DNA of 58,982 nt, filler included, from Jimgerdemannia flammicorona (lineage: Eukaryota), in NCBI GenBank assembly GCA_003990765.1. It is 3 parts of 3 records of this genome, joined end to end, with 100 filler letters (N's around TTAATTAATTAA, not from the genome) between each part and the next. Parts side by side here need not be neighbours in the genome. Positions count along the whole stretch, not along the records: positions 39,395 to 58,982 come from RBNJ01001902.1; 2 more parts are not named here. One strand, 5' to 3'. The notes under the pieces are model-generated. The model did not search any database. It was not told where the DNA came from and saw nothing but the letters and a program-made list of their open reading frames with translations. A program made the translations under genes and the position numbers. Of this stretch, positions 10,544-58,982 are shown in pieces. Position 1 is the stretch's first letter. Each line of letters begins with the position of its first letter.

Positions 10544-10546
10544 ACT

Positions 10547-10563
10547 TGGTGCCCATTGGCTGG
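10547..10563 (+). promoter_or_regulatory. Putative primer-binding site of Gypsy-1
   Basis: TGGTGCCCATTGGCTGG 3 nt after the 5' LTR; cognate tRNA not assigned. Confidence 0.65.
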
Positions 10564-10599
10564 TAATTCAAGATGAATCCCTCACTTTCAAGCTAAAAA

Positions 10600-15000: not shown

Positions 15001-15870
15001 CAGCAAGACCAGGCACCTGGGTCATTAAGAATTGAGCCTATCCCCTTCCACCAATCGCAATGGATATCATTGGACCACTACCAGTAATACTATTAGGAAA
15101 CTGCTATATTATAGTTATTGTAGACCTCTTTACCAAATGGATAAAGGCAGGAGCATTACAAGAAGCCAATGCCCTCTCTATAGCTGACTTCCTATACCGA
15201 GAAATCATCTGCCACTACAAGACACCAAAGCAAATCACAACAGACCATGGAACAGAATTTTTTAATGGATTCCATGAGATAATGTATCAGAAATACAAGA
15301 TCCAGCACATCAAAACTACTGCATACCACCCTCAAGGAAATGGACAGATAGAGAGAACCAACAAGACTCTTAAGAATATCCTAGCAAAGATCTCAGAGAT
15401 ATATGAGAATTGGGATAACTATCTCTCAACCACCCTCTCCATCCTATGAGACATATGGTCACAGAGTACACATTTTACCCCAAGAGAGCTGCTCTTTGGA
15501 GAAGAAGATTCTGATAGAACCTCAGCCACAAATCTAGACCTAACTTAGAGATGGGTTGATGCAGAAATCCAGAGACTACACCAAATCAGGAAGAAGGCTG
15601 AAGATTACATTACCAAGTTACAAGCACTGATAAGGAAGAATGCAGAAAAGAATCACAAGGCCCTAGAACCCATTCAAATCAGAGAAAAGGTTCTACTGTA
15701 TTGAAATATAGTAGAAGCCTCATGGTCATGAAAACTGGAGCCCAAATGGGAAGGACTCTTCTATGTGCAAGATATCAAGGAAACTACCTTCTGGCTTAGA
15801 AAAATCTCAGAGACCATACTGCCTACTACAGTACATAGGAACAGACTCAAGAAGTACCACAAACCTATAT
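12030..15870 (+). pseudogene. pol: Gypsy-1 pol (protease, dUTPase, RT, RNase H, integrase)
   Basis: AIIDIGA (protease), [91 protein letters not shown]; many stops. Confidence 0.93.
12751..13167 (+). CDS. dut: Trimeric-type dUTPase domain in Gypsy-1 pol
   Basis: All five motifs: GMDL, RSSLA, GVIDPDYTGEI, RIGQM, RGEQGFGSTG. Confidence 0.93.
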
Positions 15871-15887
15871 AAGAGAAGCAAAATGTA

Positions 15888-16202
15888 ATGACCACCCATA
15901 AGGTTCTAGTTCGCAAATCATAACAGCATGTCCTGTGACCAGCAGGCTATCTGTCTGGACCATTCTCTAAGGGATACGGTACTGGCAACTACTCATCTGT
16001 AAGACTTTCAAAGTCAGAGGAGTTTGAACTGTCAACTGATTGGTCAAGATCAGAATCAGGCCCTTGCTCTATATGAAGAGAGCAAGTCTTCACCATTAAG
16101 CCAAAATACAAAGAGAAGATGCTAGCCCATAAACACCACTTTTTGACCCCTTACCAGAGGTTATGGGATCAGCAAATTTTTCAGAACTGAACTAATGAAT
16201 AA
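15888..16202 (+). pseudogene. Degenerate ~105-codon ORF between integrase and PPT of Gypsy-1
   Basis: ATG 15888 to TAA 16202 in one frame with four internal stops of TGA/TAA type; MTTHKVLVRKS..FTIKPKYKEKMLAHKHHFLTPYQRLWD. Confidence 0.4.
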
Positions 16203-16236
16203 GGATGCTCAGGAAGATTCTTATTCAGGAGGAAGA

Positions 16237-17757
16237 TGTAACAGTAACCCCAGAATGATAACATCAGTACAGGAGACAGTCTTTCCTTGTAAGTCACCAG
16301 ATCAGAGCACAAGAAGATCATACAGTATATGAGATGAGCAATGATGACCAACTGTGAGTCATTGTGACTATAGTACAAGCATCCTGAAGAATATAAAAGA
16401 AGGATCAAAGAACCACAGTAGCAGCAACCAACAAGAACCACCAATCCCAAAATAGCTCAAAGACTTACCACAAATGAAATGCCTGCTGCCTACCAAACCT
16501 CAAGGTCAAGGAATCACTAAGGTATCTCGGTTGAGGAAAGGATGTTCCAAGACATCAGAAGAGCCATGGGGACTCACTCAAGAAGGACTCCTAGTGTCAA
16601 CCTGGGTACTGCAGACCCTTATCACTTCATTCTCTACTGCCATGAAATGGAAACAAGGATCACCATTGCTACCAAATATCTCCAAATATAGCAGGAGTAT
16701 GAAATAAGAAACCTCCTCTGTCAGGAGTTCTCACAGGCCAGCACCCAAGAGCTACAAGATGCCACTCCCATGGATATATACGAAATAAGGACAGCTAAGA
16801 AGATCTATCAGATCTTCAGGCATGCACCATGGTCAATCCCCAACTTAGAGTATGTCAGAGTCTCAGACTTCAGAGACCTATCATCCTGCTATATCAATGT
16901 ACTAGAAGCCAGGGTGGCTACAGAAGCCCAGTCCACTATCACCCTTAACAGTGAAGAAGTAGAAGACTTCTGGCATCCTATCCTTCAGGACAACCCAGAC
17001 CAATTCCTACAAGGATTGATCTCAGTATTCCAAGGCCCAAGTATCCAGGTTAGACCTCTCTAAGACCCCACATTTGTTCCCTATTTTGTGGAAGAGAACC
17101 TCATAGACTGGAGAGCTCCAGATCTTGTTCCTGATTTCCCTGCCAAATATGATGACATCATTGGCGATGATGTCATCCCATATGACATATGTGAAATGCG
17201 CAACCTATACAATGAGTTTGCAGATCTCATCTCCTTCAGTGATGATGATGATGAGGATGAAGCTCCCATGGTTCTGAACTTTCTGCTCTAAGTTCTTTGT
17301 TATACTGAATAATGTCAGCACCAGTATTCTCATGTAATACTGGATAATGCCAGTACTGGTATTCTGAGGTGATGCAAAATTATTCCAGCACCAGCATTTT
17401 GATGTGACACTAAATAATGCTAGCATCCTGAACCTGTACAACCATCAGTGCCAGCCCTGGAACTTAGTAGTTTTAGTTATTGGAATTTATATTTAGCTTT
17501 ATATCTTAGCAACTATTGAATTATATTTTCCTCTTATTTCCTCTGAAATAAAGTCAGTTCTGGTTTCACTTACACACACTTCCTTGCAAGCAATCTAAGA
17601 GATAACAAGATAGTTAAAGATAAGAAGTTTGAGGACTATAAGACCTTAGGAAGACACTCCAATAACAACTTGCTTATAACAAACTTGAGTTAGTCTAAGA
17701 GATACACCTTGAAGAGAATCTGGTGTATTTGAAGGACTCAGTGACCACTATGTGACA
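16237..17757 (+). repeat. Gypsy-1 3' LTR (preceded by PPT AGGAGGAAGA)
   Basis: Aligns end to end with 9012-10543; differences are mostly transitions. Confidence 0.95.
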
Positions 17758-19606: not shown

Positions 19607-19706
19607 NNNNNNNNNNNNNNNNNNNNNNNNNNNNNNNNNNNNNNNNNNNNTTAATTAATTAANNNNNNNNNNNNNNNNNNNNNNNNNNNNNNNNNNNNNN
19701 NNNNNN
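19607..19706. other. Assembly gap/linker
   Basis: N44-TTAATTAATTAA-N44 (stops in all six frames). Confidence 0.97.
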
Positions 19707-21106: not shown

Positions 21107-21365
21107 TCAGATTATTATATCTTAGATAACTACTATTATATTTCAGACAACCACTGTATTTCAGATGACTGCTGCATTCTAGATAACTACTATATTCCAT
21201 ATAACTGCTATATTTCAGACAACCACTGCATTCCAGACAACTACTGCATTCCAGACAACCACTGCATTTCAGACAACCATCACATTCCAGATGACTGCTG
21301 CATTCCAGATGACTGCTATATTCTAGATGACTGCATTCCAGATGACCACCGTATTCTAGACTGTA
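21107..21365. repeat. 18-bp minisatellite (~14 copies, consensus ccagacaaccactgcatt)
   Basis: Direct inspection; produces the PDNHCI repeats in ORF 20912-21619. Confidence 0.9.
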
Positions 21366-35303: not shown

Positions 35304-37027
35304 CACCTTTCACTGGTAACATTCAGGTGACACAAGACTCAGGCAATACTTTTTACAACATTTTTGATAATAGATGACTATTGACATAGATAGCAATGAT
35401 CACACTGGTAAGTGTGCTGGCCAGGGGGGCAGTGGTGCCTTTGGCTGGCAGCAAGTGGGGAGGAGGGGTGATGGTTTGGGGATGCCAGGGGCTGCTATGG
35501 CTGGACAAGGTACTGGTGGTAGAGGGAGGGGCAGCCTGAGGCAATGAGGAGGGGAGAGGTCAATCTTTGCTGATAAGGTCAAGATGGGGAGAATGGCCTC
35601 TGGTCTGGATGATTGACTGGGCCTGGAGAAGATATCAATGACTACTGCTAGGGGACAGGAAGGGGTGCCCAAGGGAGTGTCTGGCAGCAGGAGAGGGGGG
35701 GGAGTAGGGGCTGGAGATGTGACTGTTGATGGGGCTGTGACTGGGGATTTGGAAAAAAATCCAGATATGATAGTGGTTGATGGTTCAGGACAGGGGGTAG
35801 GCACGAGGCCTGGGGATCTGGCAGATGGGGTGATGGGCATGGTGTTGGCACTATTACTTAAGAAATCAAGGTTGGAATTCACTATCATATTGTGTTTCAG
35901 GGGCTTGGTGGTAACTGTGAGGATGATCTTGGGGCTGGTGGTACAGAAGATGAAGGGGGCAGCCTCAGTGAAGTTTTTGAAGAAGAAAGAAGGGGTTGAG
36001 GTGGGGTTTGAGGAGGAGGAAGCATTGTTGGCTACCATGGAGAAGGAGGTTATGGTGGGAGGAGTAGTGGTCCCTATGGCTCAGTGTATGCACTGAGACC
36101 CCCAGGTGGTACAGTTGACAGTATTGGATCTTCCTATGATGTTGAGGGAGAAGACCAGAGAGTTGATTGTGGGGGTGGTCAAGAAGTATGGGAATATTAT
36201 AGACATCAGGTTTAAGATCTGAGAGGGTATGGAGCTCTGGACTAGTAATGTCGATATTTAGGTGAGGCTGGCTGGAAAAGAGAATACAGGGAAGATGAGA
36301 AATTGGCCAGTGACTCTGAAGTGGGAACTAGTAGAATATAAGATCATATAGGTAAAGGGGATGCAAGAGGAGAAGAAAGATTTACTTGAGGGTCTGGAGG
36401 ATCTGGCAAAGACAGTCAAGAGGAGGTGATTGGCATGGAAGGAGTATGAAGCTAAGACAGTGTTGGAGGTAGTTGATGGAAAGAGGACCAGAATGGACTG
36501 GGTGACCTGGGAGAAGATATAAGAGAGGAGAATCCAGAAGGAGCTGCTGGAGAAGTTGGGTGGTGGTGGGGCCAGTAGCAGTACAGGGACTGAGAGAGTG
36601 GGATTGCATAAGAGTGCCTAGGCAGAGGAAAGTGGGATGGCCCAAGGAGGGACTCAGGATGAATCAAGGGAGGAGAGACAGGGCAGTGTTGAGGTAGATA
36701 TGGAAATGAGTGGTGGAGTACACCCTCAGTATAGTGTCCTGGATGGGGCAGTGGGTGAGGAGGAATTACTAGATATACCAAATGAGGAGTGGGATGAGTT
36801 GGTGAGAAGGAGTGCTTTGGTGGACCCAGAGGTGGGGGGAGAGCAGGTTGCCCAGGGTATAGCAGAGGCAGTGGATGAGGAGAAGTGGCTGTGGAAGACT
36901 CTGGAAGGGGTGGCAGCTGAGGAGCTGGGGGGAGGGGACTTCCAGGTTATAGAAGAAAGGTACTGGGAGGAAATTCTGTATGGGGAGGAGGTCCCAAGGA
37001 AGGTTAGGAATGAGATCCTGGCAGTAC
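35304..37027 (+). mobile_element. Older LINE copy: 5' UTR and degenerate ORF1
   Basis: 5' end cacctttcactggtaacattcaggtgacacaa matches 37028; GTRPGDLADGVMGMV..AASVKFLKKKEGVEVGFEE matches the intact ORF1; CpG-depleted with stops. Confidence 0.85.
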
Positions 37028-37208
37028 CATCTTTCTCCAGTAACATTCAGGTTACACAACCCTTTGGCAACACTTTCGACACAGTTTCTGGAGAAAAGCT
37101 ACTAGTATCATGGCGACCAATGAGCATCTGGAGGTGCGTACTGGGCAGGGTGGCCCTGGAGCATTTGACTGGCAGTAAGTGGGGAGAGGCCCCAGCTTGG
37201 GGGGAAGT

Positions 37209-39140
37209 ATGAGGGGCCTGCTGGTAGGGGGCCGCAGTGGAAGAGGGGGTGGAGCTGGAGGTCAAGGGTCCGGCAGGGTGAGCTTTGCGGAGAAGGTGAA
37301 GGGGGGTCGACAGGGAGCTGGACTAGAGAGCTGGCTGAGAGGGGGGAAGGTACCGGTGGCGGATTCCAGGCAGCAACCGCTTGGAGGTGCCTCTCTGGAG
37401 GGCCATAGGAGTGGAGCTGGGGGAGTAGCGGCTGGAGTGGGGACTGCTGATGGGAGTGTGACGGGTAATCTGGAAAAAAATCTAGATGGGACTGCTGATG
37501 GTGAGCCAAGCAGTGGGAAGGGCACGAGGCCCAGGGACCTGGCGGATGGTGTAACGGGACTGGTGGTGGCTCCGTTACTCAAGAAGTCGATCTCGGCATT
37601 CGCAGTCACGCTGTGCTTCAGGGGCTTAGCAGTAATGGCAAAAATAGTATTGGGGCTTATCGCTAAGCAGGTGGCAGGAGCGGCTTCGGTGAAGTTTCTG
37701 AAGGGACTGGAGGGGGTGGAGGTGGGATTTGAGGAGGTGGAACCACTGGAGGAGGCGCTGAAGGTTGGGTTGGTGGTTGGGGAGGTGTATGTTCCGATGG
37801 CAAGGTGCTTGAAATGGGATCTGAGGGTGGTCCAACTGCTGGTGAAAGGAGTACCCATGGTGACGGCGATGGAGACAAGGAAGAGAGTAGAGGATGTCAT
37901 GGCGGAGTACGGCGAGATAGTGGATATCGGATTCAGGGTCTGGGAAGGGACCGCACTCAGGACTGGGGATGTGGATGTGAGGATTCGGCTAGCTGGGAAA
38001 GAGGCTACTGGGAAGACGAGGGACTGGCCTTCGGTGTTGGTCTGGGGGGCCTTTCTATGCAAGGTGATGCGGGTGAAAGGGAGTGAAGAAGAGGAGGAAG
38101 ATTTATTGGAAGCGCTGGAGGAGCTGGATGGGGCTGTGGAATGGCGAGCTAAGGCCTGGAAGACTTTTGAGGAGTTGATGCTTCTGGAGGTGGTGGATGG
38201 AAAGAGGATTCGAGTAGACAAGGTGCAGTGGGAAAGGGCTCAAGGGTGGAAGAGGCAGAAGGATTTGCTGGCCAAGCTGGGGGGTGGTCATCAGAAGGAT
38301 GCGAGCATGAAGACGGGTACAGAAGGGGCCGGAGCGAGTGTCTGGGCTGGTGAGAGGAGTGGGAATGAAGGGGCAGGGTCCGGAAAGGCTAAGGAGGTGG
38401 AGATTAGAGACCTATATGCTGACGGCACCTTGGAGATTTGGGACGCCAGCTGGGAGAACTCCCCCATCCCTTCCCCTCTAATCAGGCGTGGCCCGGCTTC
38501 CAGGAACAAGCCTGGGGAGGACGTGACGATGCTGGGAACCCAGCAGGTGAAATTCAGTGTTCTGGAGGTGTTGGATGGGGACCAAGTGGGGGCAGCAGGG
38601 GAGGAGGAACTGGTAGATGTCCCGGAGGTGTGGGATGAGGACGCGAGTGCGGGAGCGGACACCACGATGCTGGATGGAGGGAGGCCGGCAACCCTGGGTG
38701 GTAAGGAGGTGGGGAACCTACTTTGGATGTACTGGATGATGAATAACCTAGCGGCGGATGAGCTGGGGGAGGTGGACTTGCGTGGGATGGGTGATGAGCA
38801 CTGGATGAGAATTTTGCAGGGGGAAGGAGTGGCGATGGTGCTGAAGGCAGAAATTCTCGCGGTGTACCTGGCGGAGGAAGGGTATGAGGTGGATAAGGAG
38901 AGGGAGGCAGAGTTGGCAGTGGTCGCGGGGGAGAAGGCTGAATACTGTTGGAACAGGCATCATGGGTTGCAACTTTGGCAGGAGGCTTGCATCGAGTACC
39001 GTGAGGAGTTTGAGGAGAAGGCTGATGAGGAGATGAATGAGCTGTTGACTGGACTGGAGGCTCAGAGGGCCGAAGAGGAGGAGGTGATGGCTGAACATAA
39101 TCTGGACACAGTACGGGAGGAGAGGGGCATGGAGCAGTAG
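37209..39140 (+). CDS. LINE ORF1 protein (RRM-like core, acidic C-terminus)
   Basis: Open frame 37179-39140 with first ATG at 37209; SFAEKVK, VQLLVKGVP..YGEIVDIGF..RTGDVDVRIRL resemble L1/Tx1 ORF1; lies upstream of ORF2. Confidence 0.8.
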   Translation: MRGLLVGGRSGRGGGAGGQGSGRVSFAEKVKGGRQGAGLESWLRGGKVPVADSRQQPLGGASLEGHRSGAGGVAAGVGTADGSVTGNLEKNLDGTADGEPSSGKGTRPRDLADGVTGLVVAPLLKKSISAFAVTLCFRGLAVMAKIVLGLIAKQVAGAASVKFLKGLEGVEVGFEEVEPLEEALKVGLVVGEVYVPMARCLKWDLRVVQLLVKGVPMVTAMETRKRVEDVMAEYGEIVDIGFRVWEGTALRTGDVDVRIRLAGKEATGKTRDWPSVLVWGAFLCKVMRVKGSEEEEEDLLEALEELDGAVEWRAKAWKTFEELMLLEVVDGKRIRVDKVQWERAQGWKRQKDLLAKLGGGHQKDASMKTGTEGAGASVWAGERSGNEGAGSGKAKEVEIRDLYADGTLEIWDASWENSPIPSPLIRRGPASRNKPGEDVTMLGTQQVKFSVLEVLDGDQVGAAGEEELVDVPEVWDEDASAGADTTMLDGGRPATLGGKEVGNLLWMYWMMNNLAADELGEVDLRGMGDEHWMRILQGEGVAMVLKAEILAVYLAEEGYEVDKEREAELAVVAGEKAEYCWNRHHGLQLWQEACIEYREEFEEKADEEMNELLTGLEAQRAEEEEVMAEHNLDTVREERGMEQ

Positions 39141-39294: not shown

Positions 39295-39394
39295 NNNNNN
39301 NNNNNNNNNNNNNNNNNNNNNNNNNNNNNNNNNNNNNNTTAATTAATTAANNNNNNNNNNNNNNNNNNNNNNNNNNNNNNNNNNNNNNNNNNNN
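39295..39394. other. Assembly gap/linker
   Basis: N44-TTAATTAATTAA-N44. Confidence 0.97.
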
Positions 39395-44734: not shown

Positions 44735-45383
44735 AACCAATCTCTCTTAAGAGATCACTCTCCTACTAGTAGTGTGATTAGTTATAGTAGTACTTGATAG
44801 TTTCTCTTTTCTTAGTACTTCTGGCAGATATTATATTTTTTGAGTATATCTCAGACTTATGTTCTGAGATGGAGTTAGTATTGAAATATCATTCATAACT
44901 TTTCTTTTATGTTTACTTATCCTTAGTGGGCTTTTTGATATTCTTTTCAGATAAGGTCTTCTTATATTTTAGCAGTTATAAGAACTTTCTTTAGAGTATA
45001 GTTCCTTACTTCTGGTTTATTAAGTTTGATAAGAAAGTATATCAATATTATTGTAAGCTTTCTCTACTTTGTAATAATAGTAATTTTATAATTTTGTAGA
45101 ATAAGGATCTAGTAGATAAGAATTTAAATAGGTTTCTTATAGTTGAATAGCTATTTGAGAATAATATGGTCAATTATCAGAGTGAATTTTTTTCTGATAA
45201 GTTAGTATTTGAACCGAATAACTATCTATATAACTGTAAGATATTTCAGTTTAATACTGCTATAATTGATTTACTACTAATTAGTAGTTTAACTTATATA
45301 AGCTATTACATAGTACTACTGATTAGATTCTTCTTGAGCTAGAACTACTCTAAGACTATCTTTAGAGATATCTATGTACATAT
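44735..45383 (-). mobile_element. Older Gypsy-2-family element (host), RNase H/integrase part
   Basis: Reverse complement aligns with 52260-52910. Confidence 0.8.
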
Positions 45384-46676
45384 TGTGACAAGTAACAGAA
45401 TTATACTACTGAAATTATAAATTAGCCATATACTATATCTAGTATACTAAGCAACCAAGACTGCTTTACTGTACCAACCTGTATATTTAGTCAGAGATAC
45501 CAGAAACAGTATATTTACCTGTACTCATCAGATATACTATATCCTCAAGGTACACTGTACCCTCAAGGTACACTGTACTCTTAAGGTATACTATACCCTT
45601 AAGATACATTATACTCTTAAGGAACACTTACTATAGTTAGCAATCTATAGTTAGCAATGTAATAATCAGTAGTAACTACAACTATATAAAATACCTCAGA
45701 GATAAGAGTGAATAAATCTCAGTCCAAAATACAAATACCAAAGAAGCTTCTAAAGATTGAGCATTGGTCCTCTTTCTACTCTAGTCTACTTTCTAATATA
45801 AAGATTGATTGGTTTGTTTGCTAGATAAGTCTAAAGTTTGCTGCCAAATTCAAGAAAGAACTTTGCTACTTTTTAAAGAGAAATCTGCTACTTAAGGAAT
45901 AAGCCACTATGTTTTTGTTTACTTACCAGATAAGCCTGAAGAATCTGAGTTATCTGTATTCCTAAAGAATCTGTTATTCTTACCACAAGCCAGTCTTCTG
46001 ATATAACTTTACAGTAATTTATTGGTATAAATGAAGTCAGTCTTTGACATAACTTGCTAAGAATCTACTGTCAGTTATTATTTTTAGAAGAACTCTACTG
46101 ATTTAGAAAGAATCCATAACCTCCAAGTTATCTAAGTTATCTAAGTTATCTATATCATCTGAGTTATTAGTTTGTTCCCAGTAAGTCTGATACAGAAGAA
46201 TCTGCACCACTCTCTATTCCCAGTAAGTCACTGAGCATAATTTCCAGTAGGCTAATTAGGAGAATCTGTGTCAAATTGAGTCATCTGTCAAATTACCAGA
46301 ATATTATACATAAGAAATCTACTGTACTATATAGAAATTATCATACAGAAATCATATAAGAAAACTGCCAAATTTTCAGACCATTATATATAAGGAACCT
46401 GCTACACTATACAGAGATTGTTATACTATATAAGATTATTATATAGAAATCACATACTTTTAGAGAATGCTTGAATCACATATAAATTGCCACTATACCC
46501 AAGAATCCATCCCAATAAGGAAATCACCAGAATTGCTTACAGATATCCAGCTTTGACTATTATACCACTAAACATCAAGAATATTTTGTTACTTTTAACA
46601 AAGTAACTAGAGCTCAAGCCAAACTATATCAAACTCTCAACTTTGTAATTGTCTCTATTGAGTCAGGTATATTACA
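45384..46676 (+). repeat. Gypsy-2 5' LTR
   Basis: TGTGAC..TTACA; aligns to 54250-55508; TATATAAAA ~45684, AATAAA ~45711; 18-bp tandem unit about x5 versus about x3 in the 3' LTR. Confidence 0.93.
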
Positions 46677-46678
46677 TT

Positions 46679-46695
46679 TGGAGGCTCAACTGAGA
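46679..46695 (+). promoter_or_regulatory. Primer-binding site of Gypsy-2, tRNA-Gln-like
   Basis: TGGAGGCTCAACTGAGA resembles the complement of eukaryotic tRNA-Gln 3' ends (TGGAGG....ACCGAG). Confidence 0.6.
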
Positions 46696-46749
46696 AGATT
46701 TCAAAATTAATATGACTTTTTAGCTCACAAGAACTTATAGCCAAACTGG

Positions 46750-49700
46750 ATATATTTGATACAATACCAATCTCTGCCACTATAGAAGAACTAGTTATTA
46801 CCAGCATTTAGACAGAAAGAGAAGTAATCACTTTAAGACTTATCAATTACCCAGCATCAAAAGGATCTCAACCAAAAGTTAGTATAGTTCAAAATCTCTA
46901 ATCAGATCAACCAAACAACATAGGTAGCCCTGTTGGAGATCTTGAAGAACTTGTACAAAAACTAAAAGATCTCATTACACAAGCCCAATATCTTATAGCC
47001 AGATACCCCATACCAGTTCCACCAATCTCATTTATTGAACCTTTACTGCCAGCTCTTGCAAAATTGGAAGTAGCTCTTATAAGAATACCCAGGCTCATTC
47101 CACTTCATCTAAGGTCCAGAATATCATCCTCAAGATATCTAAGTACTCTCATCTCCAGTGATAGTTTAGAAAGCAAATCAGAGTCAGAATCTAAATCAGA
47201 ATCTGGACCAGAATCAGAATTAGAAGAAAGTGTTGATGAAATGGCCACCTCACTGCCAACTTTTGCAGGATATCTAAAGAAAGACCCCAGAGAATTCCTT
47301 GATAGAATTGAAGGAATTACAGCTCTGAGAAATCTCTCAGATGAAAGAAAAATTACCATCTATAAGGCCTAGCTCAGAGAACCAGCCAGAGAAATTTTCC
47401 ACTGAACAGCAAATGACCCACATTCAGAACTGGTGAGACAGATATAAGCAGCAGTATTTTATAAGCTAGAATATGTAGCCATGATTCACTAGCTTATCAA
47501 AAAATATGCAGAAAATGAAACCTGCCATAAGGCTTAAGAATCTATTATAGAGATAAAGAGAATTATCCAGAGCCTTCTTCACAAGAATCTAGAAGAAAAT
47601 ATATACTGCTGGGTTCAATATCATCAACCAAGACATTATAGAACCAATGACCTTTATAAATGGGATTCCTCCAAACATTGCTTAGTATATCCATACCCTA
47701 GACATCAGAAGGTCTAAAGAGCAAGTAGATGCAGTCTAAGAATTCTTTGATATCAGACAAGAAACTACCTAGAGTGATCATAATAAGAAAGAAGATAAAG
47801 AAGACATCCTGGTCAAAGTCCTACAAGGACTCCTCCAAGGACAAAAGAAATCTGAAGAAAGAAGACCAGCCAAAGAAGGAAAGAAGGACAGAAGTGAAAT
47901 CTAAGACCTCAGCTCCAAGTTAGATCAATTGATTGGACAGATTGAAAAACTTACCACACACAAAACTCAGAGTTATCCAGACAATAGAGGGTACTCCCCA
48001 TAAAGAAACCAGGGCCATCTATCCAGAGATAACAGAAGCTATCAGCAAGAAGAAAGAAGATATCCTGTTCAAGACAGAGCTCAAGTCCAATGCTTCCACT
48101 ATAGACAATTCAGATACTATACCACTGAATGTAATAACAAAAGAAGTGACCAAAGGGACTCAGAACCACCAAACTGAAGGAATGACACTCAGTACAAGAA
48201 TACTAAAGCCCATCCTATTGAAGATTTCAAAGAAGCAAGCAATAGTGAAGACTATAGTGACCTAGACTTATACTCTACCAAGATAACTACTCAGAAAACA
48301 GTCTACCTAGCAGAAAAAAGGAAGAGACCTATAGGAAGGCCATCCAGGAATATCAGCAAAAGAATCATCCAAGAAGAAGATAAAGAACATGAGAAAGAGT
48401 AAGTAGAAATACCTCCCTGAACTCTCTCACCTTTTATTCCTAAGACAAATAAGCTATCACCAGAAGATGAAGAAATAGAACAAGAAGAATGGGAACCTGC
48501 TGCCCCAAAACCTAAGAAGAAGTATACCCCAAAGACCATGCCTAGAGATATCTATAATGAAGCCTGGCAGAAGATTCAAGAAGCCAAGATAGAGGTCTCC
48601 CTTCTGCAGTTTCTGCAACTGACACTAGCTGGAGTTTAAAATAAATTGCTAAAAACCACTAGGTCTAGTACTGGCCAGGTCCCCATTCCACAGCAAGAGC
48701 CAGCTTCCATTCCTATCCAAGCTGCAGAAAGATATGTCAGTACTTACCTATATAGAGATATTGGAGAACAAAAGGCAAAAATCCTTATAGACACAGGAGT
48801 AGCTGTTTGTATTATTGCCAAGTAATTCCTGGATACCCTCTAATAGCCCATTGATGGACCATCCAACCTCAGCATTATAGTAGCAGATAGAGCCTGAACT
48901 CAACCCCTTAGAGAAATATGAACATCATTATCTCTCTGGGACACATTCAGTTCTCCATCCCAAAAACTATTGTCACTAAAGTTATTACCTATGATATGAT
49001 CCTTGGCACTAACTGAATGAAGGAAATGAATATAATTGTTGATATCAGTCAACAAGTACTTAGGTTTGACTATCAGGGCAAGAAGTACAGAGTTAAGGTA
49101 ACCAGCTATGAGCAATTGAAGAAGAAGAAGAAGATCACTATCCAGGAAGAATATGCCAGTAGTGAAGAGTCTACTACAGAGGAAAAAGAAGAATCTGAAG
49201 ATGGAAATGATTCCAGACTCAATCCCAGGATCAACCTAGTAAATAACAGACCAGAAGATAATATATAGGCCAAGAACACTGTCCTCATTACCATCAGAGC
49301 CATTGCAGGAGAAATTAAAGGATACTCTACTTACCTCAAGAGACACAAGTGTCCTGAGCACTCCTCCAAGATCATTGGGACAAGAAATTCACCCAGCACA
49401 GCCTGCCCAGAATGCAGAAAGAAGAAAAAGAAATGCAGATATATTCCAGAAATACCTGCAGCTGAAGCTGCAGAAGTACAAGCAATTTAGAGTCAAGAAT
49501 CATCTGAGGAAGAAGAAGTTCCTAACCAAGAAGTTTCTGAACAAGAAGTACTTGAAGAAAAAGAGGTCTCTGAACTCATTTCCTGAGATGACCCTTGCTG
49601 GACACTATCTGAAGACAATGACTCTTGGAATATAGAAGAAGAACCCAGTATAATCCCCATTATTCCTAAGAAAGAAACTCACCAAGAGAGGGAATTTTGG

Positions 49701-52700
49701 CTAGGAAGATGTCCACACCAAATGGTCTTCCACTCTCTCTGAGACTACTGCTACCAGTGCCATCTACTAGACCAATAGGAGAGATAGAGACCCCAGAGAC
49801 CAGAACCCCCAAATACAGTTGTACAGTTAACTACCTTCCAAGAAGTTACCACTAAGTTACAAAGCTGATTCAGAGGACAAAGTCTCTTCACCCAAATAGA
49901 AGTATATCCCTTGTCTACTCTTCTCTCAACTTATGATCAAGATGGATACTGATTCCCAAGACAACAAGAAATTAATAACCAGGAACATCATTTCTAAGTA
50001 ATGGAATATTGTAATTATAGAAGACACCCAGACTGCTGAGACTGCAGACATCAGAAGATTCACCTCAGTCATGATATTGCAATCCATACCTTGAAGAGAG
50101 AAGATAACAGAGGTCAGATCCAAAAAAGCCAAACCAAGAAGCCAGAAAGAAGGACTCTCAAGATCTATAATTTAGGAGAAGATATTCTAGCTCTTATTAG
50201 ATATGTAATCTACCAGGAATAGATAGAGGATGCCACCAACTTCATGGAAGCCCTAGACCCTACAGGAAGAAGAGGAATCAACTATCTCCAAGACCCCTCC
50301 ACTAGAGCCAGATAGCCACACCTCAACCTGAGAACCTGGAGGCTCTTTACTAGTGGAGCCTTAGCCCAAGGACAGCTCAAACTCAGCAAGAATATTGCCT
50401 AGTATACCCTACTATATCTAAAGACCAAACCCCCCAACCAAAGCTCACCCAGAAGATATAGGATATGATCTTTACAGTCTGAAGGATGAATTCATCAAGC
50501 CTGGAAAAACATTCATAATCAGAACCAGACTAGCCATATAGCCACCCTGAGAAGCTTATATATAACTGACCTCAAGATCTAGACTTACCAGACAAGGAAT
50601 AACTGTAGAAGGAGGAACTATTGACCCAGAATATATAGGCGAAATCAAGGTCATTCTACACAACAATAGTACAGAATGGCACCAAATTATTAGAGGACAG
50701 AAGATTACCCAAGCAGTCTTCATGAAGGTCAAGACCCTATAATTATAAGAAGTCTCCAAACTGACTGAAGGAATAAGACAGGCCAAAGGATTTGGAAGTT
50801 CAGATAAGAAAAAAGTACATCTCCTTCAAGTCAACCACCTCAAGAGGAATGTTTCTCAGCAAGTGTACTACCAATCAGTCAAACTGTACAAAAATCTCAT
50901 CTTAGAGCCTGGAGAACAAACCACCTTTGAAATCTTTATACCATCTGATTCCAGAAATCTTTTCTTTGAACCCAATGAAGATATCCCACACCTAGATATA
51001 GAAGGATACACATTCTCTGATAAGATAAATCCAGTATATTTCTGAGCAACCAACCAAAGTTGAGAAACTATCATCTTACCAAAAGAAATCATTATAGGAC
51101 ATTTGGTGCCTTTTCTCAACTGAACTCATAGAGAAGTTTATAAATAAACTTATTGAGAAATGGCAAAAGGTCTCAGAAGAAAGGAAAGGCCCCTCTGTGA
51201 CCCAGGAGATAGTGAAGCCTTCTACCAATATTGGAGAAAAATTGATACCACAACAATGGCAACAACTAGTAGAACTCCTCAACAAATATCAAGATATCTT
51301 CACTACTAATTATAGTAATCTGCCATATAACCCATCATATCACTATAGCATAAATATAGAAAATGCAACATCTATCCAGCAGAAACCCTATAGAATACCT
51401 CATTACCTAAAGACATTCAAAAAGGAGCACATTTAAGAACTCTTAGACAATGGAGTCATCTGACCCTCAACTAGTCCTTGGGCTAGTCCTATACTTATTA
51501 TACTAAAGAAAGAAGAATAGAGACTCTATGTAGATTACAGAAAACTCAATTCAGTTACTGAAAAGGATACCTATCCTTTGCCCAGAATTGATGACCTTTT
51601 GGATCAGTTACAAGATACCAGATACTTCAGTATGGACCTTTTCACAGGATTCTATGAAATCTCCATAGACCCTAAAGATATTCAAAAGACAGCCTTTCTT
51701 GCTCTAGGAAAACTGTTTGAATATCTCTGAATGCTCTTTGAAGTTTGCAATATACCTTCCACCTTTCAGAGGATGATGAATTCAGTCTATGCCTCTTTGA
51801 TCCACTATTGCTTGATTGTATATATGGACAATTCCAACATCTATTCAGCAAATTTTGAAGAACACCTATACCACCTAGAGGAATTCTTCAAGCTCACCCA
51901 CAAGAACCACTTGAGACTGAATGCAAAGAAATGCTACTTTGGGAAACAGAAACTTGAATTCCTTAGATTCATAGTTTCAAAAGAAGGAATCCATACAGAT
52001 CTGAAGAAAACTGAGAAGATCAACAATTGGTCAGTACCCAAGATCCTGAAGAAAATACTATCATTCCTGATATTAGTATCCTACTACAGAAGATTTATCA
52101 AGGACTTTGCCCAAATCGCTGCCCTAATCCAAGTCCTTCTCAAGAAAGAAGTACTTTACAAATAGACAGAATCACAAGAGAAAGCCTTCAAAAAACTCAA
52201 GAACTGCATGACTATAGTACTAATCCTTGTATATCCCAATCTACAAAAGCCATTCATCTTATATACAGATGCTTCCAAAGATGGCCTAGGAGCAGTCCTA
52301 GCCCAAGAAGAATCTGACCAACAATACCATATAATAGCTTATATAAGCTGAGCTACCAATTAGTAGTAGATGAACTATGGCAGTACCAAACTGGAATACC
52401 TTGCAGTTATATGGGCAGTTATTTTGTTCAAGCATTACCTCATTGGAAAAAGATTTACCCTGATTACAGACCATGCAGTTCTCAAATAACTATTCAACTA
52501 TAAGAAACCCACTGAAATTCTAGCCTGCTAGATTCTTATTCTTTAGAATTACAAAATCACCATCATCTACAAAGCAGGAAAAGCTCACAACAACATTGAT
52601 GTACTTTCTTGCCAGTCCTAATAAATCAGAAGAAGGGTGTCTCAAGGAACTATACTCTAAAGGAAGTTTCTCAGACTATCAAGGCCCAAGAAGATCTCAT

Positions 52701-53690
52701 CTGAAAGGAATACCAGAAAGCCCACTAAGGATAAGTAAATATAGAAAAAAAGTTATGAACAATATACCAACATTGGCTCAATCTTAGAATACAAGTCTGG
52801 AACATACTTAAGAAATGTGACACCTGCCAGAAATACTAAGGAAGGATAAACTACCAAGCACTACTGCAACCAATCACATCATTAGACAATATCTTTTAGA
52901 GATGGGGAGTAGATGTAATTAGACCCCTACCAGTTATACCAAGAAGAAACAAATACATTCTTGTATTTATAGAATATCTGACTAAGTGGCCTGAGGCTTT
53001 TCCAATAGAAATCACAGATATCTTAACCATTGTAGGCCTTCTTTATAGACTCACACTCAGATATATAGACCCCCAGCAGAACTCATCTCTGACTGAGGTA
53101 CAGAATTCATCAATAATATAATCACAAGTTATATTCAAATTTATAAGATCCACCTCAAACAGACTACATCATACCACTCTCAGATTAATAGTATGATAGA
53201 AAGAATGAATCAGACCATTAAGAAAGAACTTGCCCAAGTTAGTCCTATCAATTGAAACTTCTGCTTATCTGAGATCCTATGGAAAATTTAAAATACCCCT
53301 GCTATCTCTACCAAACAAAAGCTATTCGAAATGATGTTTGTCAAAAAAAAACCAGAACTACTGATCATGAGAATCTTGGAGACCTTCTCAAGAAGACAGA
53401 ACAGTTATATAATCAGGCCTAAGTTCAGATTACCAATGCCCAAAAAAGACAAAAGAAGTACTATGACCAGAAATAGAAAAACCAGAAGATCAAGATTGGA
53501 GATCAAGTATATACTAGTTTAGAGAAGCATGATTGAAACAAACTTTGCTACCAAATTGGAGCCTAAATGGGAAGGACCTTATCTTGTGCACAATATCAGA
53601 GGAACCAGTATCTACATATTTAAGAGACATGGATGGATAAATCCTAAGAACACTAGTACACACCAATTACCTCAAGATATATCTTTTCCA
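46750..53690 (+). pseudogene. Gypsy-2 gag-pol relic
   Basis: LPTFAG..DPREFLDRIE (gag), ILIDTG (PR), SPWASP, VDYRKLN, YPLPRIDDLL, YMDN, YTDASKDGLGAVLAQ, WGVDV, EYLTKWPEA, KLEPKWEGPY. Confidence 0.9.
50410..50805 (+). pseudogene. dut: dUTPase domain in Gypsy-2 pol
   Basis: GYDLYS, SRSRLTRQGITVEGGTIDPEYIGEIKVILHN, KITQAVF, RQAKGFGSSD. Confidence 0.88.
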
Positions 53691-53749
53691 TCATAAACCA
53701 GACAATTGACCAGTACCTCTAGACCCCTGTTCTGAGTTCATTCTAATCA

Positions 53750-54209
53750 CTTCTAGTTTCCCTTTCACAATTTCAACAAGTCAATGGAAACCCCCTTCAA
53801 CAAATCAAGATCTATCAAGAGAACCTCACCTTGGCCAGATATTTACTATAAGTCCACCAACTGCAGGCCTACTATGCAATTGGAGAACAGTTACAGAACC
53901 TCTCAGTAGCAGACCTGATCTACATCAGAAACTCCACTAGTCTCACCCAGAAAAATACCACTACTGCAGACAGAGTATATATATACAATCTACAAATGAA
54001 ATGTCCCAGTATTGACACAGGCACAATTCCTTCCAAATGATATTTAAAACATAAACCCTGCCACCTACTGGAGCATTATCAACCATGTTGAGATCTTGTT
54101 TCTAGAGGAAGAAGAAGAACCCATTGAATGGAGTAACTCTGATCTAAATGAAGATACTGGTTTGGATATTGATGCTGAAGATGCTTATGCACATTGGAAT
54201 AATGACTAA
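53750..54209 (+). pseudogene. Gypsy-2 accessory ORF (ORF3) between integrase and PPT
   Basis: PLQQIKIYQENL..LQAYYAIGEQL..TTADRVY/TIYK*NVPVLTQAQFLPNDI*NIN..acidic tail..WNND*. Confidence 0.6.
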
Positions 54210-54249
54210 AGGATTGTCTAAGAACAGACTATCCTTTAGTAGGGGCTGA

Positions 54250-55508
54250 TATGATGAGCAACAGAATTATATTGCTGAAATCATAAATTAGCCATATACT
54301 ATATCTAGTACACTAAGCAACCAAGACTGCTTTACTGTACCAACTTGTATATTTAGCCAGAGATACCAGAAATAGTATGTTTACCTGTACTCTCCAGGTA
54401 TATTATATCCTCAAGATACACTATACCCTTAAAGTATACTGTACTCTCAAGAAACACTTGCTATAGTTAGCAATCTATAGTTAGCAACATAGTAACCAGT
54501 AGTAATTATAACTATATAAAATACCCCAGAGACAAGAGTGAATAAACCTCAGCCTGAAATACAAATACCAAAGAAGCCTCTAAAGATTGAGCATTAGTCT
54601 TCTTTCCACTCTATTCTACTTTCTAATACAAAGATTGATTGATTTGCTTACTAGATAAGCCTGAAGTTTGTCATCAAGTTCAAGGAAGAACTTTTCTGCC
54701 TTTTGAAGAGAAATCTGCTGCTTAAGGAATAAGTCACTATATTTTGGTTCACTTACTAGATAAGTCTGAAGAATCTGAGTTACTCATATTCCCAGAGAAT
54801 CTATTATTCTTACCACAAGCCAGTCTTCTGATACAACTTCACAGTGATCTATTTATATAAATGAAGCCAGTCTTTGACATAACTTGCCAAGAATCTGCCA
54901 TCAGTTATTATTCCCAGAAGAACCCCACTGATTTAAAAAGAATCTGCAACCTCTGAGTTACCCAAGTTATCTAAGTTATCTATGCCATCTGAGTTATTAG
55001 TTTGTTCCCAGTGAGCCTAGTGCAGAAGAATCCACACCACTCTCTATTCCCAGTAAGCTACTGAGTATAATTTCCAGTGAACCAATTTAGGAGAATTTAT
55101 GTCAAATTGAGTCATTTGTCAAATTATCAGAATGTTATATATAAGGAATCTACTATACTATACAGAGATTGTCATATAGAGATTATATAAGGAAGCTGCC
55201 AAATTGCCAGACCATTATGCATAAGGAACCTGCTATACTACACAAAGATCATCATACTATACAAGATCATCATACAGAAATTGTATACTTTTAGAGAATA
55301 TCTATATTATATATAAATCACTACTATATCCAAGAATCTGTCCCAATAAAGAAATCACCAGAATCACTTGCAGATATCTAGCTTTGACTATTATACCACT
55401 AAATATTAAGAATATTTTGTTGCTTTTAACAAAGTAACTGAGACTCAAGTCAAACTACATCAAACCTCTAATCTTATAATTTATCTCTATTGAATCAGGC
55501 ATATTACA
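54250..55508 (+). repeat. Gypsy-2 3' LTR
   Basis: Aligns with 45384-46676 (initial TG mutated to TA); purine-rich AGTAGGGG upstream. Confidence 0.93.
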
Positions 55509-58500
55509 CTATATACAAGATAAATAACTTTTACAGATTAGATTATATAAGAATTGGTACTATGGTTATATAGTACTTGAGTTCTTGAAGGCTAATTATT
55601 ATAGCTTTATTCATTTATATAATACTTCTTTCTTGAGAAAAGTTTAAATTAGGGCAGTAATTTGGATAAAGTCCTTGATAAATCTTCTATAGTAGGATAC
55701 TAGCTTTAGAAATAATAGTATTTCCTTCTGAGTCTTAGATACTGGCCAGTTGTTGATCTTCTTGATTTTCTTTAGATCTATATAGATTTTTTCTTTAAAA
55801 ATAATAAATCTAAGAAATTTGAGTTTCTGTTTTCTAAAGTAATATTTCTTAGTATTGAGCCTCAGATAGTTCTTGTAGATGAGCTGGAAGAATTCTTTTA
55901 GATAGTGTAGATATTCTTTAAAATTTACTGAATAGATATTAGAATTATCTATATATATAATTAAATAGTAATATATTAGTGAGATATAGACTGAGTTTAT
56001 TATTCTCTAAAAGATTGGAAGTATATTATAGAGTCTAAAGAGTATTTAGAGATATTTAAACAATTTTTCTAAAATAAGAAAAGCTATTATCTAAATGTTC
56101 TTGAAGTCTATAGAGATCTCAGAGAATCTTGTAAAAGGATCCATACTACTGAAGTATATATCTGATATCTTATAATTGATCTAGGAGATTATCAATTCTG
56201 GGCAAAGGATAGGTATCTTTTTCTATTACTAAATTGAGTTTTCTGTAGTCTATACAGAGTTTCTATCCTTCTTTCTTATATAATAAGTATAGGGCTAGCC
56301 TAGAGACTAAATAACTCTATTGTCTAAAAGTTCCTAAATATATTCCTTCTTGAATATCTTTAGGTGATGGGGTATTCTATAAGATTTCTACTAGATAGGT
56401 GTTATATTTTCTATATTTATACTATAGTAGTATAATAAGTTATATGGCAGATTACTATAGTCTATAGTAAAGATATCCTGATATTTTATAAAGAAGTTCT
56501 GTAAGTTGCTACTATTGCTAAAGGGTCAATTCTTCTTCAATATTAGTAGAAGACTTTACTTTCTCCTAAATCACAGAAAGGTCTTTCTTTTCTTCTAAGA
56601 CCTTCTGCTATTTTTTAATAAGTTTAGTTTATAAACTTCTCTGTATATCTGACTGAGATAGGATACTAGATAGTCTATAATAGTTCCTTTTGGCAGAATG
56701 AGACTATCTCAGCCTTGATATATTACTCAAGAGTATACAGAATTTATCTTATTAGGAAATATATATTCTTATTTATTTAGGTTCTTAATATTCTTATTGA
56801 GTTTAAAGAAGAGGTTTCTGGGATTAGATGGTGTAAAAATTTTGAAGATAGTCTGTTCTTTTGATTCTAGAATGAGATTTTTATATAGCTTAACTAATTG
56901 GCAATATACTTATTAAGAAGTATTCTTCTTAAAATAGTTGACCTAGAGGAGATATACTTCTTTCTTATCTAAGCTTCCAAATCATTTAGTTTGTCTTGTA
57001 CCTTAAGTCAGTTTAAAGACCTCTTGTAGTTAGAGAGTCTTGATCTTTATAAAGATTGCTTATATAATCTTTTACTTTTTTTTTTTTATCTTTTAAGCAC
57101 TCAGATCCTTTATTAACTAAACTATAACAAATATATAGTTCTTATATCACACTGGTAGCTCTAACCCCATCTACCCCCCCCTCCCCCCTACTTTACTCTA
57201 ATACATATGTATACTTCTACTTCTTTACTCCTACTCTTTCAAAAACAACTATACTATTAACTACAGCAACTTACTCACCACTCCTCTCATATATCTCTTT
57301 TATCAGATACTGATAGTGACCTTCTGAGGGCCCCATCTCCTCTACCAGCCAGACAGAATGTCTACCATCAGCTCCTCTCACCTTACTACCTTTTTTCCTA
57401 AGACTATCTATCTCTCATCCTTAAATATATATAGCCAGTAATTAGCTAGCACTATCTATACTACCAATATCCATCCAACAGTAAGTCACTCATTACCAAT
57501 ATACTCTACCAACCACTCTCTTAAGTTATCTCATCTATGTATATTCTTTTTTCTTTATAGATTTAGTTCTATTCTATACTACTATTATTTTGAATGATCT
57601 TGATTTTACTTGTGTATCTAGGGTCTATTTTTTCTCTTTCTATAGTTATTCCTTATCTAGCAAGTCTAGATATTGAGGTTAGTTAGATATAAGTTTCTTT
57701 AAGTAGCTATATAGCTAGTTCTATACTAAGTACTATTGCTCTTTTAGACTTGATAGATTTATTTCTGAGATTGTGAAGATTATATCCTATATCTTCCTAA
57801 TGAGCTTTTATTTGGGGTTTGGCCTTGAGATATAGTAATATATACTTGTAGACAATATCTTTACTAAGTTTGGATTGTCCTTGAGCTGATACTCTAGTAG
57901 ATATAAGCCTTCAGACTCTAAGATTGAGGTGTGACCATCTGGCTCCAGTAGAGGAGTCTTAGAGATAATTAATTACTTTTTTTTCCATAGAATCTAGAGC
58001 TTCTATAAATTTGATAGTATCTTCTATCTATTCTTGATAAGTTTTATATCTGATAAGAGCTATGATGTTATTTACTAAATTATAGATCTTGAGAGCTTTT
58101 TTATTTAATTTCTTGGCTTAGTTTCTTTAAATCTGAGCTCTGTCATCTCCTTTCTTTAGTATATATATAGTAATATCTTGACTATAGTGAATATTCTAAT
58201 ATAGATAGTCTTAGCAGTCTAAGTGTTTTCTATGATTACAATATTTTATTACTCAAAAATACAGTTCTTAGTTATTAACTTCTTGCTATCTTAAGAATCA
58301 GTATTCACCCTTATTATAAGTTAAAAGAAGAGTAGCTAAGAGCTGTACTTCTGTTTAGGTAAAGTGACTTTATCTATTGGCTTATATTTTCAATATTGTG
58401 ATAGTTTCTTAAAAGATAGTTATCTATATAATTGTGATTGAGGATTCTGATCTGCAGTATCTCTATCTTTCTTGTTAGTCCAATAGATAGCACTGATAAA

Positions 58501-58950
58501 GAGTAGAAGACCTTTTGATACTGGTATCTTGCTAGCTAAAAGACTCTTTTCTGGTATATTTTTCATCTTGAGATAATAATAACTATATTTGATTCTTTTT
58601 CAGCATTTCAGTAGTTATCTTCTAGCAGTATCTAGCAAGAGTCATTCTAGGAGATAAATTCAGAGAGTTTCTCCTATTTAGGTACTTCTTGTTCAGGAGA
58701 TTTTTTATTAGATTCTTTTTGATCCCAGATTACTTACACTGCTACAGCTTTAGTTATAGATATCTTTAGAGAGTAATTGTATTTTTTCTTCTTTTTTCTA
58801 TACTCAGGACAGATTGTACTAAGCAAATTTCTTATTTTAATAATCTTGAAGGAATATTCAGAGTACTTATATCTTTTGAGACAGATGGAGTATCCTTCAA
58901 CTTATCCTAAAATAGCTCTAATTGTGATGAAAATAGTATCTTTGATCTAT
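55509..58950 (-). mobile_element. Older Gypsy-2-family element (host): RT, dUTPase and PR-dUTPase spacer, heavily mutated
   Basis: Reverse complement is collinear with ~49200-52270 (e.g. cagattgatgacc/DTYPLPRID, dUTPase segments). Confidence 0.85.
57076..57537 (-). mobile_element. 5'-truncated LINE 3' end inserted in the host dUTPase
   Basis: T-run with upstream AATAAA on the minus strand; similarity to 7491-7825 (ctgagg(a/g)cccc); degenerate TSD tatataatctttt 57061-57073 / tgtatattctttt 57538-57550. Confidence 0.7.
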
Positions 58951-58982
58951 ATATATATTTTTTTTTTTTTTTTTTTTTTTTT

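Follow-up and report, generated by a model that had tools for sequence, protein, structure and literature searches.

The stretch between the integrase and the 3' LTR of Gypsy-2, a Ty3/Gypsy retrotransposon of Jimgerdemannia flammicorona, is a decayed copy of a genuine third gene. The gene is very likely homologous across three Gypsy families of the genome, and we suggest, with a probability of about 0.4, that its product regulates the LTR of its own element.

Organisation of the elements in the window

The window (the whole stretch of 58,982 nucleotides that was analysed, with runs of N at 19607-19706 and 39295-39394) holds two full-length, decayed Ty3/Gypsy elements, Gypsy-1 (9012-17757) and Gypsy-2 (45384-55508), whose features described below all lie on the plus strand. 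The genome searched comprises 231 Mb in 35,354 contigs. Paired LTRs, a polypurine tract (PPT) and gag followed by PR-RT-RH-IN identify the host elements as Ty3/Gypsy, and the domain order in both is gag, protease, dUTPase, RT, RNase H and integrase. A chromodomain at the C-terminus of the integrase is absent from the translations of Gypsy-1 and Gypsy-2, as read by eye, and past the last integrase motif the pol frame runs on for about 20 codons in Gypsy-1 and for a few in Gypsy-2.

Gypsy-1 is flanked on each side by the 4-nt sequence ATAT. Its 5' LTR (9012-10543) encloses a whole cassette, with a TATAAAAG box (9167-9174) situated 87 nt 5' of the start of an ORF of about 270 residues (9254-10066) that lies in U3 and has one internal stop in this copy. 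Four CCAG-N2-CTGG palindromes (10090-10235) are found 5' of the main LTR TATA box (10306). The dUTPase (12778-13167; Pfam PF00692, E-value 2.5e-29) lies between protease and RT. The PPT (16226-16236) directly precedes the 3' LTR (16237-17757), in which the second TATA box is at 16392 and the ORF (16479-17291) has three internal stops.

The 5' LTR of Gypsy-2 (45384-46676) has five palindromic units of a U3 array at 45520-45608. The decayed dUTPase, RT and RNase H regions (50420-52620, ends approximate) are followed by a decayed integrase (52650-53710), which lacks a chromodomain and stops a few codons past the start of the accessory gene, ORF3 (53693-54209). A TATA-like box, TATTTAAG (53617-53624), lies within the integrase frame 76 nt 5' of the ORF3 start and is a candidate internal promoter. 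The PPT (54238-54249) and the 3' LTR (54250-55508) follow; this LTR is without ORF3 inside and has three decayed palindromic units of the same array, of TGTAC-N7-GTACA type and spaced by 18 bp, at 54386-54438.

Several other regions of the window were also noted. The stretch of about 1.3 kb between protease and dUTPase of Gypsy-2 (49100-50400) has acidic stretches and Cys/His motifs, is kept in sister copies and gives no Pfam match for the part scanned. Older Gypsy-2-like fragments of 70-76% identity lie on the minus strand on either side of Gypsy-2 (44773-45366 and 55509-58954), and may be a single element split by the Gypsy-2 insertion. A tandem pair of serine carboxypeptidase S28 genes (PF05577; 24748-26755 and 31949-33964), about 83-92% alike and not depleted in CpG, represents host genes rather than LTRs. 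The G-rich region 35400-39140 (GC skew 0.4-0.56) has an open frame of 653 residues with no convincing Pfam match, and 18-nt tandem repeats are arrayed at 21111-21345 within an open frame of 238 residues.

The third gene of Gypsy-2

Five in-frame stops and a 4-nt insertion near 53975 disrupt the window copy of ORF3. Both parts of the motif string that a sequence-only reading had assigned to this protein, AYYAIG...TADRVY and IYK*...DI*NI, are present, but they are not in one frame, as the string spans the insertion (about 53975-53978). The acidic tail runs in the frame of IYK*...DI*NI to a TAA at 54207-54209. The start of the gene lies upstream of the 53750 given before, at 53693, where the window has ATA and other copies have ATG. 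The gene begins over the last codons of pol and ends about 30 nt short of the PPT, and intact sister copies encode 171 residues.

A search of the genome with a 98-residue ORF3 probe gave 1311 first-look candidates, 150 of which were scored. ORF3 lies 3' of an integrase in 19 and 5' of an LTR in 18 of 20 regions picked for open frames. Three Gypsy-2 subfamilies, a (to which the window copy belongs), b and c, are distinguished, and 79 of the 84 copies were classed. The net transversion divergence between the ORF3 subfamilies at codon positions 1, 2 and 3 is 0.051/0.022/0.129, 0.103/0.038/0.170 and 0.081/0.045/0.144 in the three comparisons. Since this divergence is mostly at third positions and includes transversions, which C-to-T decay does not make, it shows that ORF3 was under purifying selection. 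Stop counts per subfamily were left unused, as the copies had been picked for open frames and the non-coding control of the same comparison failed. The frame in which ORF3 runs over the end of pol is +1 in subfamilies a and c but +2 in subfamily b, which speaks against a fixed fusion.

The gene within U3 of Gypsy-1

In the window element, as in all four whole elements fetched, both LTRs have the Gypsy-1 ORF in their U3, and each Gypsy-1 LTR contains a TATA box, UTR, ORF and an AATAAA. Stop-free natural copies read EYEIGNLL, in agreement with the ancestral glycine that had been deduced from the GAA and AGA codons of the two LTRs. Four of four environmental runs, from four studies, place the left edge of the LTR at 9012 and show the PPT as a loose end; they cover the ORF apart from part of its variable tail, where coverage is thin. 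A nef-like read-through from the end of pol across the PPT into this ORF was considered and is ruled out by 1-nt indel variants and by the fixed TATA box and stop 5' of the start.

A decayed LTR of a divergent Gypsy-1 subfamily (L087:210-1790), apparently solo, has the ORF and the TATA box inside and no pol match adjoining. An excess of solo LTRs is not demonstrated by the first-look candidates, 3474 for the LTR ORF and 2381 for RT/RH, which are not copy numbers.

Homology of the two protein types

The genes of Gypsy-1, Gypsy-2 and Gypsy-3, a third family described in the next section, very probably form one homologous family. The helical domain proposed from sequence to be shared by the two dUTPase-bearing families is supported by profile controls, HMM ranking, bridging proteins and the series of helices. 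BLASTP reveals no match between Gypsy-2 ORF3 and the Gypsy-1 LTR protein. Alignment of the profiles of the reconstructed proteins, which had been suggested as a check, gives scores above the shuffled controls, although the direct match is weak (probability 17-21% over 44 columns) and needs bridging sequences. As the alignments deepen, the hhalign E-value falls from 0.15 to 0.016 and to 0.001-0.0015, always in the register given by the earlier reading. The score of 29.5 compares with 15.2 +/- 2.6 (maximum 21.9) for 40 block-shuffled alignments and with 12.1 for the reversed one.

HMMs were ranked against six-frame translations of the fetched loci (3.8 million residues). Gypsy-2 ORF3 takes 39 of the 40 top non-self places with an HMM of Gypsy-1/3 only, and Gypsy-1/3 ORFs take 28 of the 40 top places with an HMM of Gypsy-2 only, these being counts of related copies and not of independent events. 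A joint profile searched against 1.84 billion representatives gave 13 matches, two of which (P0019 and P0022) were discarded as spurious, repetitive proteins. Three metagenomic outgroups (P0020, P0021 and P0023) reach 32-39 bits with the HMM of Gypsy-2 only. They align to the Gypsy-2 type at 98.7% and, by hhalign, to the Gypsy-1/3 type at 78.6-85.4% (E-values 6e-6 to 2e-5), a bridge that is biased because these proteins were first found with the joint profile. P0021 alone matches both types of ORF in the genome; of its 100 matches, each of them weak (E-values 0.08-0.76), at least 19 coincide with Gypsy-3 ORFs. P0023 was not found in the metagenome contigs searched, neither P0021 nor the Gypsy-1/3 alignment has a match in the viral contigs searched, and a second metagenome scan gave one locus.

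Structure prediction, also suggested earlier, bears out the relationship, as AlphaFold models built from separate alignments show the same series of six helices (17-34, 50-83, 97-110, 114-119, 124-129 and 132-145 in one; 18-30, 54-83, 100-113, 117-122, 128-132 and 136-149 in the other). The mean pLDDT values are 79 and 49.8, the latter being that of the Gypsy-1/3 model, which is of low confidence. The shared part comprises about 130 residues, in addition to which proteins of the Gypsy-1/3 type have another region, about 100 residues long. That the Gypsy-2 type and the Gypsy-1/3 type are two unrelated genes, alike by chance or by convergence of amphipathic helices, would be in keeping with the missing BLASTP match, the low direct hhalign probability and a branch that, at about 4 changes per column, is the longest in the ORF tree. 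It is very improbable given the shuffled and reversed controls, the reciprocal HMM rankings, the bridging outgroups and the common helix series, to which the same spacing from TATA box to start and the same slot before the PPT may be added.

No match to a known family was obtained in Pfam, in PDB sequences (best E-values 0.26-0.44) or in the ESM Atlas. Fold searches with Foldseek against PDB and BFVD (none at E 0.001) and with VIA-align (best Z 3.7 and 3.8) gave no match either, which does not amount to proof of a new fold. At L143:2044-3416 a P0010-like ORF occurs twice, in inverted orientation and with no pol match close by, and a further Gypsy-2-type subfamily is about 60% identical to P0014.

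Gypsy-3 and exchange between lineages

Gypsy-3 was found by a search of the genome with a distant protein of the Gypsy-1 type. It has the order gag-dUTPase-PR-RT-RH-IN-chromodomain between LTRs of 800 bp, its dUTPase preceding the protease, unlike that of Gypsy-1 and Gypsy-2, and it is a chromovirus (PF00385, E-value 1.3e-12 in L153). Its accessory ORF is external to the LTR and has a stop codon that abuts the PPT, and the two full elements (L162 and L163) have two LTRs and one ORF each. This ORF shares 34-37% identity with the LTR protein of Gypsy-1 (BLASTP E-value 9e-51).

Two other regions of Gypsy-3 were noted. About 650 nt between the chromodomain stop and the accessory ORF (L153:6700-7350) are kept among copies, and a second small ORF is possible there, one frame being protein-like and having its stops where codons are prone to decay. 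A long open N-terminal extension of over 300 residues with no Pfam match precedes gag (L163:7378-8349, minus strand).

Gypsy-1 and Gypsy-2 are 40-41% identical in RT and 34% in IN, with ORFs that are barely alignable, and Gypsy-1 and Gypsy-3 are 37% identical in RT, 24-32% in IN and 34-37% in the ORF. The ORF identity between Gypsy-1 and Gypsy-3 thus equals that of their RT and exceeds most of their IN matches. Since ORF3 evolves faster than pol within Gypsy-2, a Gypsy-1/3 ORF as close as the RT suggests exchange of the cassette. An RT tree of 17 rows chosen from the fetched loci groups Gypsy-3 with two other RTs apart from Gypsy-1 and Gypsy-2 (99/97), and an ORF tree of 15 rows chosen likewise joins Gypsy-1 with Gypsy-3 (100/100). 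As the three RT lineages are nearly equidistant, a swap between lineages is likely and falls short of proof, and ancient paralogy or a long Gypsy-2 branch could imitate it. On balance we favour the accessory gene having been swapped between Gypsy lineages.

The gene had earlier been proposed to have moved between the 3' internal region and U3. Both of these positions hold, but the closest relative of the Gypsy-1 gene is the ORF before the PPT in the chromodomain-bearing Gypsy-3 and not ORF3 of Gypsy-2; the gene therefore probably changed lineage in addition to entering U3. In a metagenomic contig (L190) the ORF stop lies against a Gypsy-3-like PPT and TG, but there is a TATAAAAG box, and the 5' UTR matches that of a Gypsy-1 LTR copy at 20 of 20 nt. 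Judged from this arrangement, L190 appears to be an intermediate between the pre-PPT and in-LTR states. Since the gene precedes the PPT in L190 and in two of the three families, this location is probably the older state.

It is likely that a cassette of TATA box, UTR and ORF crossed between lineages and was then enclosed in U3. The exchange between a chromovirus and a non-chromovirus would have taken place by recombination, and the enclosure would have followed when plus-strand priming came to lie 5' of the cassette. The notion of a family-wide third gene holds within a limited range, namely the three Gypsy families described here and a single metagenomic contig.

Promoter-like sequences of the cassette

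A TATA-like box is found 75-87 nt 5' of the start codon in all three families, and 80 nt 5' of the ORF start in L190. TATAAAAG is present in 39 of 39 Gypsy-1 sequences, TATAAA(T/A) in 35 of 35 Gypsy-3 sequences and TATTTAAG in at least 79 of 83 distinct Gypsy-2 copies, these being counts of distinct strings, a few of which may be one place fetched twice. The Gypsy-2 box makes the weakest case for a promoter, its conservation not being independent of the integrase because it also encodes Tyr-Leu-Arg, and C-to-T decay favours TA-rich words, a caveat for this box. The mobile unit, as far as the conserved arrangement indicates, appears to be the cassette of TATA box, UTR and ORF, which is more than a domain, and the accessory gene probably has its own promoter. 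A short mRNA would be transcribed from the internal TATA promoter and would end at the LTR poly(A) site.

Protein features, U3 arrays and possible function

Both proteins have acidic tails, as had been observed from the sequence. The last 45 residues comprise 17-18 D/E, 0-3 K/R and 7-9 W/F/Y/L in Gypsy-2, P0010 and Gypsy-1; the tails of the outgroups P0021 and P0023 are weakly acidic, with 7 and 9 D/E. The tail is unstructured in the models, and acidic activation domains typically combine acidic residues with aromatic ones and leucine, as the Gypsy-1 and Gypsy-2 tails do. The conserved core, with about as many K/R as D/E, is not strongly basic.

The product is not an env protein, and the absence of a transmembrane segment or signal peptide reported earlier is upheld by a simple window test, in which the maximum 19-residue Kyte-Doolittle mean is at most 1.17 in nine of nine proteins. 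A role as env substitute or movement protein, helping particles to pass between cells or nuclei, could be imagined from the long amphipathic helix in the model and from the env slot of the gene, which is also that of the plant aORF-3S genes in the available part of their description (PMC7264820). It is highly unlikely for proteins with no hydrophobic segment, no signal peptide-like start and no viral structural match.

Palindromic arrays in U3 differ between the elements. Arrays of at least two TGTAC-N7-GTACA units are present in 25 of 37 sequences of subfamily a, 25 of 30 of b and none of 15 of c, and arrays of at least two TGTCC-N3-GGACA units in 15 of 15 of c and none of 67 of a and b. CCAG-N2-CTGG arrays (at least two units) are found in 25 of 32 Gypsy-1 sequences. 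No repeated palindrome is found in U3 of Gypsy-3, where none of the top 10 exceeds 0.9 per copy in 33 stretches. Subfamilies b and c are indistinguishable in RNase H and IN beyond the decay within each class: over 19 loci, they differ by 0.095 in RNase H (within-class 0.094 and 0.088) and 0.079 in IN (0.089 and 0.067). The same loci differ by 0.261 in ORF3 and 0.268 in U3. The RT row for subfamily c was left out, its within-class value of 0.26 being inflated, probably by one interrupted locus. Residues 89-90 of the presumed recognition helix were tried as a subfamily-c difference and found wrong, the separating positions being 72, 76, 85, 103, 104, 116, 118 and 120-122.

LTR retrotransposons are thought to depend on host factors for transcription, and repeats in U3 are commonly sites for such factors. 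The helical, acidic-tailed product is predicted to bind the family-specific repeats in its own LTR, where the bound protein would activate its element or shield it from silencing. By analogy with Tas or VANC, we tentatively propose that the protein may be a regulator of its own LTR, acting as a self-activator or as an anti-silencer. A fuller version of this proposal is doubtful as a whole; it adds that the protein is a helical, sequence-specific regulator of new fold carried on a promoter-gene cassette, and that cassette and U3 array co-diversify, were traded between chromovirus and non-chromovirus and came to lie in the LTR in one lineage. Several observations count against the regulator model: Gypsy-3 has no such array, the core is not basic overall, and the acidic tails of two outgroups are weak. 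ORF3 also lies next to U3, so that recombination would carry the two along together even if they did not co-evolve, and linkage alone can account for their co-segregation; moreover, subfamilies a and b share an array though their ORF3s are 30% apart.

Accessory proteins that act on RNA are exemplified by Rev of lentiviruses. With the same gene family and cassette, the product could act in the export, packaging or stabilising of genomic RNA, which is consistent with the lack of transmembrane segments and with Arg/Lys and aromatic residues conserved on one helix (R-x-x-A-x-K/R-I/L-Y/H). The Gypsy class offers a precedent in CERV of Cer1, in the part of the account available (PMC10309623). This role is improbable, as it leaves the acidic aromatic tail and the co-segregating U3 arrays unexplained and no RNA-binding fold or family was matched in the Pfam and fold searches.

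Another potential role, which is unlikely though it accounts for Gypsy-3 being without a U3 array, is to counter host defence by contact with proteins of the RNA silencing or methylation machinery, the acidic tail serving to dock and DNA not being read. Host pressure on the elements is strong, the observed/expected ratio of CpG being 0.05 and 0.01 in the two elements as against 0.98 in the peptidase region; the rapid divergence and apparent swapping would suit an arms race, and a short D-L-I-x-F motif is kept in the Gypsy-1/3 tails. A general suppressor, however, need not differ between subfamilies having the same pol.

Comparison with known systems

To our knowledge, most extra ORFs of LTR retrotransposons have no known function. 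Extra sense ORFs between pol and the 3' LTR are already known, and the available parts of the literature describe the plant aORF-3S (PMC7264820), bdelloid ORF3s that co-occur with dUTPase and are common to unrelated lineages (PMC5408684), and an 'add. ORF' and dUTPases in fungal Gypsy elements (PMC2864245). Gypsy-2 and Gypsy-3 fit the positional class of aORF-3S and Gypsy-1, with its ORF inside U3, does not. The present genes are like aORF-3S and bdelloid ORF3 in slot, orientation and presence in most copies; they differ in having no transmembrane segment, no match to env, GDSL esterase or DEDDy exonuclease, and their own TATA box instead of splicing, and one family has the gene in U3. Searches of the open-access literature, supplements aside, gave no account of the family or of an ORF lying within the U3 of a Gypsy element, a point on which the list of elements in the supplement of PMC2864245 could bear, and the available part of 10.1101/2023.09.13.557621 contains no description of the family.

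Tas (Bel1) of foamy viruses, according to the part of PMC517496 available, is expressed from an internal promoter near the 3' end, has a C-terminal acidic activation domain and binds both the internal promoter and the LTR. A TATA box and an acidic tail are likewise seen here, from sequence alone, whereas DNA binding is only predicted. There is no sequence match through Pfam, PDB or BFVD, and the host elements are Ty3/Gypsy without env. The ORF promoter and U3 also share no element beyond chance, the ORF promoter and U3 of Gypsy-3 having 8 7-mers in common, equal to a rough chance estimate of about 9. The targets of VANC in the VANDAL transposons of Arabidopsis are tandem repeats that differ between related elements (PMC5735166, in the part available), as the U3 arrays differ between subfamilies with different ORF3; VANDALs are DNA transposons, there is no sequence match, and Gypsy-3 shows no array. 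The sag ORF of MMTV lies mostly in U3, has promoters including one within U3 and is kept in solo LTRs, as the available part of PMC4667437 describes. The likeness of the Gypsy-1 ORF, present in U3 of both LTRs, to this betaretroviral superantigen is positional only, without similarity of sequence, and here the prior state is probably the one seen in relatives whose gene is not enclosed by the LTR.

The pre-PPT and in-LTR states, linked by the 20-nt UTR match, indicate a route by which a coding gene may enter an LTR, as in MMTV sag. The natural matched sets (three ORF3 subfamilies, two types of array and a Gypsy-1 type) make a comparison of cognate and swapped binding straightforward. Should the proposed function fail, a new and abundant family of accessory proteins with an unmatched fold remains. 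If the product is a regulator, every LTR of the Gypsy-1 type would carry both a regulator and its sites, a retrotransposon counterpart of Tas and VANC, and an activator or demethylation factor so compact and retargetable would be of use as a tool as well.
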